NCBI GenBank assembly: GCA_964016885.1
Contig: OZ024740.1
Coordinates: 130,448,001-130,512,000, forward strand
DNA: 64,000 nucleotides
Origin: Eledone cirrhosa
Taxonomy: Eukaryota
Direction of reading: 5' to 3'
Of this stretch, positions 1,061 to 59,741 are shown piece by piece. Under the pieces are notes generated by a model. It was not told the origin of the DNA and searched no databases. It was given only the letters and a program-made list of their open reading frames with translations. How positions within the stretch are numbered: the first letter of the stretch is position 1; each line of letters starts with the position of its first letter. Position numbers and translations under genes: made by a program.

Positions 1061-1124
1061 TTTATAAATTTATAAATTTCTGGTTGGTTGGTTGGTTCCA
1101 TAACCAGATAGTTGTTTATATATT

Positions 1125-1167
1125 GTCATAGTTCTTTCGTCACACACTCTGTGACCTCTTCAGTGAC
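1125..1167 (-). ncRNA. Minimal type I hammerhead ribozyme motif (mirror copy)
   Basis: Exact reverse complement of 1423-1465. Confidence 0.8.
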
Positions 1168-1422
1168 TGGGGATTCCTTTCTTTGTTTCTGTGCCTCTCC
1201 TTTGTTCTGTCCTACGCCATTTTGTTTCTGTGTGTTGTGTGCTCAGTCTGCGCATGCGCGACATCCGGGTATCAGTGTGTGTTTATGTTCATTTATTTAC
1301 ATGTTACTGGTTGGTTGTTCTATGTGGCGCATGCGCAGACTAAGCACACAACACACACACAGAAACAAAATGGCGTAAGACAGAACAAAGGAGAGGCACA
1401 GAAACAAATAAAGGAATCCCCA

Positions 1423-1465
1423 GTCACTGAAGAGGTCACAGAGTGTGTGACGAAAGAACTATGAC
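1423..1465 (+). ncRNA. Minimal type I hammerhead ribozyme motif
   Basis: GTCA-CTGAAGA-G-GTCAC(agagtgt)GTGAC-GAAA-GAAC-TA-TGAC: stem I GTCA/TGAC, CUGANGA and GAAA boxes, UH cleavage site. Confidence 0.8.
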
Positions 1466-2482
1466 AATATATAAACAACTATCTGGTTATGGAACCTACT
1501 GTGCGTCTGTATACATATATGTATGTACGTATACATACATACATATATATATATATATATGGGGTGGGGTGGGGTATGCGTCTGTGAGTGTGTGCATGTG
1601 TGTGTGCGTGTGTTTGTGGATGTGTGTGTGTGTAATCAAGTTTTCATCATAATAGTGGTTTTCTACTTTTTCCATATTTTCAGATAATCCATGACCATTT
1701 AGTGTACAGAAGGGTCAATATAATTTACACATGATCGACTCAAATTACTTCAGTTATACACTACACTGATATATGTTGTACTACACATTCACATATTTTT
1801 GATTGGTTGCAATACATATAGTATTTTCCGAATATAGTTCCTAGCGCCTCCGTCAATGTTTCACCATTTGTTGTTTCAGAAATTATTTTCATATCACAAT
1901 ATTTCCGTTTCGGAAAAAGCAAAATTGGGGTGCTGAGCAGGAAATGTATGTAAAGAGCGGTGAAGACATTCCAGTGTGATGATTATATGCCAGTGAGATG
2001 AAAGGTGATTGGTTTAAGGAGAGCAGAAGGATGAAATGCTCAATTAGCATAGTTTGGTATTAACTCGTAGCACTGAGTTAATATATGGCCTATGTCTGAC
2101 ATTCTAACCAGTTTGCCAGGTCGTAACCCGTTTATTCTCTGTTTGTATATCTAATATATAGCAGCCACCATATCATATTTATAAATATTGTACAAATTAG
2201 ATGAAGAAACAAAATAAATCTAAATTCACATAAATGAGGAAAAAGCATAGTGTATAAAATTATATATCCCTCTTCTAGAAATCAACATGATCATAGAAAT
2301 GATACTTCGAGAATTGACTCGTTATCATCAGTGATATTGCTCGTTGAAATGGCAGTGTTAATTTCAAGATCAATTTGTCTAAACAAAATATAATCGTATA
2401 TGTGTTACTGTCGAAGTGCTTCATTTAAATAGCTTTTACTTTCCAAAACTATTTATATATATATATATGTGTGTGTGTGTGC

Positions 2483-3339
2483 GTAAGCGGACGGTACTTG
2501 ATTTAGGAGCCGCAGAAACCCATATACTGGATTTTACCAACCTTCCAGGGGTCCGGGTAAATTTGCAATACCCGAATTACTTGATCGTTTTTTGGGGCTA
2601 TGCGAATGATTGTTTAACCATCGTCTCAGTGTGTTTGGCCTTCAACGTTTGTCATAGCTCTGGTTCATCTGAATCATTGAGCATTTGCCGCACATCTCGG
2701 AGGTTCTTTTTCGTTATTTCGTGGGCCGAAATGCGAATCTCGATAATTCATGTTTGTATTATTCTCCAGACTCTAGCTATTGACCAGTTAATTTTCTTGA
2801 TTTTATATTTGATTCTATTGACTGATGAATAGCTTATGTTAATTTTAACCCTTCTGTTGAGAACTCTATTCGATTTGTGATGTTTTTGCATTCTTACAAA
2901 AATATACACAACTGAATTCATTCGCCTGATATAGGTGTTGCCTACCTTGCCGATCCCCACGTGGGGTCAGCAATAGTCAGTCCTTGTATTAACATTGAAC
3001 TAAAACCTGTTGAGAAAGTGGCTTCCTTGTTCAATCATCTTACCAGAAGACTGACATTATTTATGTAAGCGGATGGTACTTGATTTAGGAGCCGCAGAAA
3101 CCCATATACTGGATTTTACCAACCTTCCAGGGGTCCGGGTAAATTTTCAATACCCGAATTACTTGATCGTCTTTTCGGGCTATGCGAATGATTGTTTAAC
3201 CATCGTCCTCGTGTGTTTGGCGGTAAACGTTTGTTATAGCTCTGGTTCATCTGAATCAATGAGCACTTGCCGCACATCTCGGAGGTTGTTTTTCGTTATT
3301 TCGTGAGCCGAAATGCGAATCTCGATAATTTATGTTTGT
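2483..3339. repeat. ~275-bp direct repeat (2483-2757, 3065-3339), period 582 bp, between microsatellites
   Basis: gtaagcgga(c/t)ggtacttgatttaggagcc...cgataatt(c/t)atgtttgt present twice at high identity. Confidence 0.92.
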
Positions 3340-3868
3340 TTATATATATATATATATATATATATATATATATATATATATATGCGAACGCGCGCGTCTG
3401 TGTGTGTATGTGTGTATAGATATATATATAGATTCATAGATTGCTAGATAGTTTTATAGATTTAAAGTTGAGTGTGTACGTGTATGCGTGTAATATAACC
3501 TTGATATATAACATAGTATGCTAAGGATTTAAATGCACATAATATTTTTTTAATTATATAGAGAATCAGTAAGAACACATTATTAAGATGATGAATGAAA
3601 ATGAGAATAAAAAGGTCTAAATTAATTGGAATCTAAAAAGACAAACTCAAAGATAACTAAGTGAAGAAAAATATTAAGTTATAGAATAGCCTGAACAGGT
3701 ATTAATTAATCACCTTCGAAGATAGTAATTAAAGAATTTGATTAATTCATGATGTAATTATATTGGGGTACAACATTACCACACTATTATTTCAACTAAA
3801 AGCGTTTGAAAGATATCACTGGATTTGTATTTATAGCCCTTATAACAAATAACATTCTCCCTATTATT

Positions 3869-58342: not shown

Positions 58343-58927
58343 CTCTCTCTCTCTCTCTATATATATATATATATATATATATATTTCTCTCTCTCTCTCT
58401 CTCTCTCTCTCTCTCTCTCTCTCTCTCTCTATCTCTCTCTCTCTCTCTATCTCTCTCTCTCTCTCTCTCACTATCTCTCTCTCTCTCTCTCTCTCTCTCT
58501 CTCTCTCTCTTACTCTCTCTCTCTCTCTCTCTCTATTTCTCTCTCTCTCTATCTCACTCTCTCTCACACACACTCTCTCTCTCTCTCTATTTATCTCTCT
58601 CTCCCTCTCCCTCTCACTCTCTCTCTCTCCCTCCCCTCTCTCTCACTCACACACTCTCTTTCTCCATTCCTCTCTAACTCTGTCTCTCTATCTTTGTATA
58701 TGAATATGTATGTATACATGTATATAGGTATATATGTATATATATATACAAATACAGGCACACACACACAAACACACATGCACACACACACGCACACACA
58801 CGCACACACATACACCCAAACCCACATATATGCGTGTGTGTGCGTGTGTGTGTGTGCATATATGTATATATATATATATATATATATATATATATATATA
58901 TATATATATATATATATATATATATAT
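58343..58927. repeat. Compound (CT)(CA)(TA)n microsatellite
   Basis: Directly visible. Confidence 0.97.
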
Positions 58928-59051
58928 AAAAATTTGCTGGGGTGAAAAAATACTAACTACAGCAATATAGTTTGTTATCCTTAACTTTAAATATTAAATT
59001 AAGAAAAATTCAGAATAATATTAGAACTATATTGGCAAAAATGCCTGGTAA

Positions 59052-59129
59052 CAACTAGACAGTGTTGGAGATTATTTCGCAACGACTTATTAAGTGAAGT
59101 TCTCACGTTTCTCTGCTCCTCAGTAGTTG
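59052..59129 (-). ncRNA. Type I hammerhead motif (stem III slightly mutated)
   Basis: CAACTA-CTGAGGA-GCA..TGC-GAAA-tAaT(ctccaac)ACTG-TC-TAGTTG. Confidence 0.75.
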
Positions 59130-59596
59130 TTAAGAAATTAGTGATCCTTTCTCTTCTAATGAGAATGAATTGTGTACGATATGAATTATCGCACGTGTCA
59201 TTCGGAACCCAGCTTGTCTCGAAATTCCCTGCCGCTAAAAATAGCACCCTGACTGACAGGACAATAAAAAATAGCTCCACATGATGGAGCCGACAAATAT
59301 ATATTAAATTAAGAACACAGGGTAGTCTCTTACAATCAAATAACTCCTAGAAAAAAGGTTTTCCGAGCCGTACAATATATTTGAATGAACAAGAGGGATA
59401 AACACTAATATAAACATACATGTGTTCGAATCGTTCTCTCTCTCTCTCTCTATATATATATATATATATACATTTTTTTTTAGTGGCACTGAATTTCGAG
59501 ACAAGCTGGGTTCCGAATGACAAGCTGGGTTCTGAATATCGTACACAATTCATTCTTTAATATTTTTAGAAGTGAAAGGATCACTAATTTCTCAAC

Positions 59597-59671
59597 AACT
59601 ACTGAGGAGCAGAAAACGTAAGAACTTCACTTAATAAGTCGTTGCGAAACAGTCTCCAACACTGTCTAGTT
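59597..59671 (+). ncRNA. Type I hammerhead motif with a full stem III
   Basis: AACTA-CTGAGGA-GCA..TGC-GAAA-CAGT(ctccaac)ACTG-TC-TAGTT; all three stems pair. Confidence 0.88.
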
Positions 59672-59741
59672 CTTACCATGCATTTTTGCCCAGTAGAGGT
59701 CTGTTATTTTTCTTTATTTTTCTAGAGAGAGAGAGAGTGAG

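Follow-up and report, generated by a model that had tools for sequence, protein, structure and literature searches.

Why do five apparently unrelated inverted repeats, all within a single 64-kb stretch of DNA (the window), carry hammerhead motifs that point away from the centre of each repeat? An earlier note on the window had proposed that they are small, non-autonomous fold-backs, generated or mobilised by the reverse transcriptase (RT) of Penelope-like elements (PLEs).

Inverted repeats and hammerheads in the window

Comparison of the window with itself recovered all five inverted repeats, here A to E, in the places where they had been reported (Table 1). Within each repeat the arms are 89-98% alike (identical among aligned bases: A 167/171, B 462/509, C 193/199, D 246/271, E 205/230), and the five are mutually dissimilar apart from scraps of simple repeat shared by B and D and by C and D. 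Tracts of (TA)n lie beside all five: they border B, C and D on one or both outer sides, and in A (924) and E (58929) they are found where the longer arm ends on the outside. The presence of five cases within 64 kb would reflect the targeting of the same (TA)n-rich DNA by several families.

The description of the fold-backs as small fails for D, whose arms are separated by a 4.4-kb spacer with later insertions. This spacer holds a short interspersed repeat, the whole insertion of a separate PLE family (H) and a simple-repeat tract; the original junction, hidden by the insertions, would lie near 46741-46758. Treating D and the nested repeat at 43286-45654 as a single element was rejected, H having its own 3' end and hammerhead. 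The arms of A meet head to head at 1322-1326, and in A, B and C just one of the two arms has a tail. The window also holds inverted repeats without a motif in the strict scan described below, at 28715-30309, 60201-61172, 9488-20430 and 13455-16397.

Table 1. Positions in the window of the inverted repeats, the element copies that compose them and the hammerhead motifs.
Feature	Positions	Strand	Details	Source
Repeat A	1091-1499			self-comparison
Repeat B, arms	33345-33874 / 35151-35667			self-comparison
Repeat C, arms	37138-37337 / 37589-37788			self-comparison
Repeat D, arms	41901-42353 / 46758-47211			self-comparison
Repeat E, arms	59002-59241 / 59477-59723			self-comparison
A, long arm	924-1326	-	PLE 3' end (pLTR with hammerhead, and tail); 5'-truncated 171 nt upstream of core; ends at (TA)n	
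A, inverted arm	1322-1496	+	5'-truncated 105 nt upstream of core	
B, inverted arm	33351-33874	-	5'-truncated, no tail; ends at (TA)n	
B, main copy	33896-35776	+	5'-truncated; endonuclease frame end, long 3' UTR, pLTR, tail	
C, inverted arm	37139-37337	-	no tail; intact hammerhead	
C, main copy	37342-37888	+	5'-truncated, with tail; tail 37788-37888 is the next unit's start	
D, left arm	41941-42547	-	PLE 3' end	
H, separate PLE family	43170-46039		three inverted pieces, inserted later in D spacer	
Simple-repeat tract	46031-46741	-	probably 3' UTR of the left D copy, rich in microsatellites	
D, right arm	46758-47110	+	5'-truncated 292 nt upstream of core; ends at (TA)n	
E, main copy	58929-59434	-	nearly full ~520-nt non-coding unit; ends at (TA)n	
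E, inverted arm	59477-59723	+	5'-truncated	
Hammerhead, A left	1125-1167	-	minimal type I; stem III two pairs only	strict scan
Hammerhead, A right	1423-1465	+	minimal type I	strict scan
Hammerhead, B left	33400-33473	-	type I	strict scan
Hammerhead, B right	35540-35613	+	type I	strict scan
Hammerhead, C left	37184-37228	-	intact	strict scan, Rfam
Hammerhead, C right	~37698-37742	+	three core changes	
Hammerhead variant, D left	~42025-42075	-	stem I lost	
Hammerhead variant, D right	~47047-47096	+		
Hammerhead, E left	59050-59131	-		strict scan
Hammerhead, E right	59597-59671	+		strict scan

Hammerheads were sought on both strands with a strict type I descriptor, comprising the core boxes, stem II, one stem III pair and at least three stem I pairs. 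The seven matches in the window all fall within repeats A, B, C and E (A 1163- and 1427+, B 33469- and 35544+, C 37222-, E 59123- and 59602+), and 50 local dinucleotide shuffles gave a mean of 0.28 matches and a maximum of 2. All seven read away from the centre, as had been claimed. The further claim of a motif in each arm stood for seven of the ten arms: A, B and E have an intact core in each arm, and the strict scan gave no match in C-right or either arm of D. C-right has changes at three core positions (CUGCUGA, GAGA, GAC). In D, as read by eye, a U lies opposite a U at 10.1-11.1 in nearly all copies of the family, stem I is lost from the left arm and stem I of the right arm is bulged.

The minimal metazoan PLE hammerheads described in PMC4209133 share with the motifs here a short or absent stem III and an extra base after position 9, whereas the U-U at 10.1-11.1 in D is unlike them. 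Rfam recognised C-left alone (Hammerhead_1, RF00163), with 31.7 bits, short of the 34-bit gathering score, and gave no hammerhead match for B at E<=10. Its many microRNA matches in the window were discarded as simple repeats.

Parent elements of the arms

Judged by sequence, the arms of A to D are the 3' ends (pLTRs) of protein-coding PLEs located elsewhere in the 3.0-Gb genome. Upstream of the arm in each of these families, on the same strand as the ribozyme, motifs and tblastn identify a frame for RT with a C-terminal GIY-YIG endonuclease. In A, one locus (L009) has a frame that contains YVDD, ends in GIY-YIG-type sequence (437 aa used) and closes ~270 nt before the arm. Family C has a 952-codon frame upstream (L137), and its full-length copies have beside them an inverted arm whose length varies. 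A protein of the same type was found in 8/8 long loci of B, the last 70 residues of whose endonuclease frame lie inside the window at 33895-34113.

For D, the first 23 long loci, selected by the arm, had no common frame close upstream; the link between arm and frame came from one locus (L219) and then from loci chosen by the end of the frame. The arm is present in 17 of 20 loci chosen solely in this way (downstream in 6, upstream as a pLTR in 4 and inverted upstream in 12, classes that overlap), and is separated from its own frame by 2-5 kb of simple repeats. The partial-tandem layout of pLTRs was seen in B, C and D: the tail of B recurs at the start of the unit in L144, 37772-37888 in the tail of C matches residues 4-42 of the C frame, and the D arm sits directly upstream of the frame in 4/20 loci. 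Copies of all four families have fixed 3' ends with an optional tail, variable 5' truncation and an inverted 5'-truncated partner.

Pfam gave a weak RT match for the A protein (E 0.003-0.005) and neither an RT nor a GIY-YIG match for the C protein, and neither the A protein nor the C profile matched any solved structure. In the Atlas, the C protein adjoins clusters with GIY-YIG or RVT_1 on part of their members. The naming of the A and C proteins is based on motifs, these Atlas neighbours and a Pfam GIY-YIG match in 3/25 homologues.

By their motifs and (TA)n targets, B, C, D and H would belong with the Hydra clade of C-terminal endonuclease-positive (EN+) PLEs. As in the clade described in PMC8557442, their frames have RW[K/R] (in the form RWR in C, D and H), a CxCX5C linker, and CxxC and CxH around conserved E and N, and they share its (TA)n targets and hammerheads. 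DKT is clear in B, C and H but not in D. Units here measure 4-5.5 kb with long 3' UTRs, whereas Hydra-clade elements are given there as generally <3 kb. Family A has YVDD and is without the Hydra-clade motifs, and so would fall in another C-terminal EN+ group.

The proposal that the repeats are non-autonomous fits E only and fails for A to D, whose arms are pLTRs of protein-coding PLEs. From the arrangement of its copies, E is best described as a non-coding, circularly permuted unit of ~520 nt, which resembles a retrozyme and inserts like a PLE. The period is 492-525 nt in 26/29 other loci, copies longer than one unit wrap round, and the recurring form is this linear unit, not a hairpin. Among 29 loci picked by the arm alone (a set overlapping the loci used for the period), we found no shared upstream frame and no coding partner. 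Its insertions nevertheless carry a PLE signature, with two fixed 3' ends ~75 nt apart, (TA)n targets and an inverted 5'-truncated partner, and 20/30 fetched E loci have a head-to-head insertion. At one E locus, the end of a D frame lies directly upstream.

Non-LTR retrozymes, as described, are likewise non-coding, each unit having a single type I hammerhead, and form partial tandems by wrapping round. They measure 170-400 nt (PMC7229834) against ~520 nt in E, which occurs mostly as monomers with partial tandems. A 2026 preprint ties retrozymes to PLE pLTRs (bioRxiv 10.64898/2026.07.22.740005); E would link a retrozyme-like unit to the PLE insertion mechanism.

In contigs of four public runs compared over 58900-59800, two runs, from one sample, contain both E arms at a depth of hundreds to thousands. 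The same two runs have four opposite-strand joints in different places, at depth 4-10 each, some of which may be mapping switches between arms; the window's own E junction was passed over as repeat in this comparison, which we therefore left out of the evidence. Two runs guessed to be RNA gave 0 and 4 short pieces over the same interval.

Junctions and the route of insertion

If the arm-spacer-arm hairpins were non-autonomous elements, transcribed and re-inserted whole, the same junctions should recur elsewhere. We searched the 3.0-Gb genome using A, B, C and E entire and, for D, its left arm as queries, scoring in each search the best 40 of 1312-5568 candidates (476-5568 across all searches made), the window's own place included, a depth at which rare whole fold-back copies may be missed. 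Single-arm copies rank first in the whole-element searches, one arm plus spacer being the linear element. Among the best 40 each, the whole of A is covered at one other place (L002, 91%), the whole of E at one (L042, 81%), and the whole of B or C at none. Both exceptions, which would favour movement as units, have breakpoints other than those in the window (in A, -146/-109 against -171/-105). A ribozyme-free repeat at 60201-61172, used as a control, was found whole and ~100% identical at 39/39 other scored places, and movement of the fold-backs as units would therefore have been seen.

We then compared the junctions themselves, mapping the fetched loci on one natural long reference copy per family and counting a doubly fetched locus once. 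Of 67 inversion junctions in these copies, 66 are head-to-head, with the 5' ends meeting, and one is tail-to-tail. The 66 comprise 63 (A 2, B 17, C 15, D 9, E 20) plus three A junctions lost to a stricter low-complexity filter; the A, B, C and E junctions of the window are among them. No pair of junctions in A to D agrees within 8 nt on both sides; two pairs in E do, and these differ at the base level once aligned. Repeated junctions thus number zero among the 66 in the best-scored, fetched loci, and we consider movement of whole hairpins to be highly improbable. Unique breakpoints, together with A to D arms that are pLTRs of protein-coding PLEs, are what the earlier note had named as speaking against its own proposal of mobile units.

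The generation of the repeats by PLE reverse transcriptase, the other half of that proposal, is supported by the constancy of the 3' ends at (TA)n, the varied 5' truncation, the meeting of copies head to head and the frames upstream in A to D. We conclude with high confidence that each repeat consists of two 5'-truncated copies of one Penelope-like 3' end, head to head, with a join particular to the site, probably laid down in a single insertion by two-sided copying at a cut in (TA)n. The fold-backs are thus likely by-products of ordinary PLE insertion. The 3' ends abut (TA)n with or without the tail, and the hammerhead sits 60-150 nt inside them, so any sufficiently long arm carries an outward hammerhead. 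The ribozymes face outward because the 5' ends meet centrally and a ribozyme lies near each 3' end. One arm stops short of the core in 11/41 junctions of B, C and D.

Inversion could instead have followed insertion, when a lone copy underwent local repair or template switching, or a second element could have inserted independently alongside the first. PLEs do often enter (TA)n beside or within each other, as H has in D, and some junctions contain 10-50 nt of filler. Yet independent events would be expected to be spaced by (TA)n and to occur in either orientation, and neither version readily accounts for 66 of 67 junctions being head-to-head with both arms reaching the family's fixed 3' ends. 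Most joins are also blunt or overlap by a few bases (gap <=0 in 39/63, a rough BLAST measure without a null). We regard these routes, taken together, as improbable.

Under two-sided copying, the endonuclease would nick both strands within (TA)n, reverse transcription would begin from each end at fixed internal 3' start sites, and the two cDNAs, stopping at unequal lengths, would be joined. The same process, acting in trans on the ~520-nt retrozyme-like unit, may produce E. In L1 twin priming, the inverted segment is not known to carry a second copy of the 3' end. The two-sided priming proposed here differs in that the inverted arm repeats the 3' end. Biochemical work on a purified PLE protein, as described in PMC11167929, reports cleavage and extension of both strands of AT-rich DNA, with initiation at two internal sites that define the tail; ribozyme cleavage, which itself needed the protein, was dispensable for insertion.

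Head-to-head PLE architecture and ribozyme pairs on opposite strands are already known from published accounts. Craig et al. 2021 (PMC8557442) describe a 5'-truncated copy in inverse orientation that abuts the 5' end and so yields inverted repeats, a one-sided tail and (TA)n targeting, and Cervera and De la Pena 2014 (PMC4209133) describe dual opposite-strand hammerheads ~100-700 bp apart, tied to truncated PLEs. The repeats share with the endonuclease-positive insertions of the former the strong 5' truncation, the inverted and likewise 5'-truncated copy, the one-sided tail, a hammerhead in the pLTR and microsatellite targets. Unlike the cases given there, the two copies in the window are short enough to have lost all or nearly all of the reading frame, and tails here are ~75-190 nt against 30-40 nt. 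In literature listings, searches on Penelope-like hammerheads, inversion, twin priming and hairpin siRNA gave no mobile ribozyme fold-back (judged mostly from the listings), and those on octopus Penelope hammerheads gave nothing on the A to E families. The repeats are an ordinary, known by-product of Penelope-like insertion, and their value lies in the material: Craig et al. (PMC8557442) name the completion of PLE insertion as unresolved, and many unique junctions with both arms from fixed 3' ends constrain how it is completed.

Fate of the paired ribozymes

The earlier note had envisaged a competition between self-cleavage and a long hairpin in transcripts of either strand. Because the motifs face outward, the antisense arm is transcribed first on either strand. 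In predicted folds of A, C and E, the core pairs with the other arm with probability 0.88-1.0 at all positions but one, a C mismatch. The contest is therefore predicted to be one-sided, the long hairpin burying the ribozyme on read-through. A transcript of an inverted pair has one sense motif, and so dimerisation in cis would not occur.

Maintenance by the host of the paired ribozymes, as a switch between self-cleavage and hairpin, would fit the intact pairs of cores in A, B and E. The ribozymes appear, on sequence comparison, to decay without selection after insertion: among loci chosen by likeness to the window's copies, departures from the column majority in families A, B, C and E affect 10/440 positions (2.3%) of paired-arm cores and 141/5486 (2.6%) of flanks, D being left out since its core had been placed two bases off. 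The motifs of C-right and D-left are broken, and the core is predicted to be buried in the hairpin. Single metazoan PLE hammerhead motifs are moreover described as showing poor cleavage or none (PMC4209133, PMC11167929), the minimal ones giving no cleavage in vitro in PMC4209133. We give a host-maintained switch very little credence, and favour decay without selection.

Counts of A>G and T>C differences in the paired genomic arms are small, with no clear skew, a comparison sensitive only to edited RNA that was re-inserted. It is possible, although we lean against it, that head-to-head insertion seeds thousands of ribozyme-trapping hairpins that would, on read-through, feed Dicer and ADAR as a brake on these families, and that the PLE signature of E is structural evidence that PLE enzymes insert retrozymes. 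Stem III in E and D is longer than in the minimal motifs described in PMC4209133, with 4-5 pairs beyond the core, and these hammerheads could fold as monomers.

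Core variants of hammerheads in Penelope-like elements

In C, an inverted repeat of 3' ends (pLTRs) of protein-coding Penelope-like elements (PLEs), the two arms show six differences in all, three of which fall at core positions of the right-arm hammerhead (37704-37732). Across the paired arms of this family overall, core differences amounted to 3/77 versus 10/921 (p 0.07), all three core differences coming from the window's copy alone. In family D, a second such inverted repeat with copies at loci L101-L130, the hammerhead has a stem III of four pairs and a stem I of six pairs, and nearly all copies place U opposite U at 10.1-11.1; judged from its sequence, the motif is a predicted unusual hammerhead variant. 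Family H, a separate PLE family lying in the spacer of D, has the core CUUAUGA at 45934 in the window's copy, while other H copies keep CUGAUGA.

Features in the window outside the main inverted repeats or nested in them
Feature	Position	Detail
LINE-type element fragments	3.9-20.6 kb	RVT_1, zf-RVT matches
Inverted pair, young non-coding family of about 1 kb	28583-30342	508-bp arms, 99%
Direct repeat, 521-nt spacing	39236-39906	core on minus strand in each copy
Family H, Hydra-like PLE nested in D	43170-46039	three pieces, two inversions
Young element, fixed inverted repeat at one end	60201-62596 and beyond	length at least 2.4 kb
Short piece matching family A tail (932-1008)	63711-63859	small hairpin adjoining

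Other hammerhead-like repeats

Both copies of the direct repeat carry a CUGACGA...GAAA core, at which the strict type I descriptor scan of both strands found no stem I. Elsewhere in the genome, locus L149 (G000:C14:19251000-19259500) has four hammerheads in tandem with a 466-nt period, a putative classic retrozyme array belonging to another family; a stretch related to this array occurs at L220.

Neighbouring elements

The young element starts at (TA)n, its fixed inverted repeat measures 221 bp, and near-identical copies were found at 39/39 other places among the best 40 candidates scored. It lacks a hammerhead, and neither its far end nor its class was found. Copies of the non-coding family lie between (TA)n tracts and can stop at either of two ends, and at other loci they pair over different distances; the strict scan detected no hammerhead in the window's pair. 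Two further inverted pairs (9488-20430 and 13455-16397) fall within the LINE-type fragments. At L145, a copy of B, another inverted pLTR repeat, has Gypsy-type gag-pol frames directly upstream.
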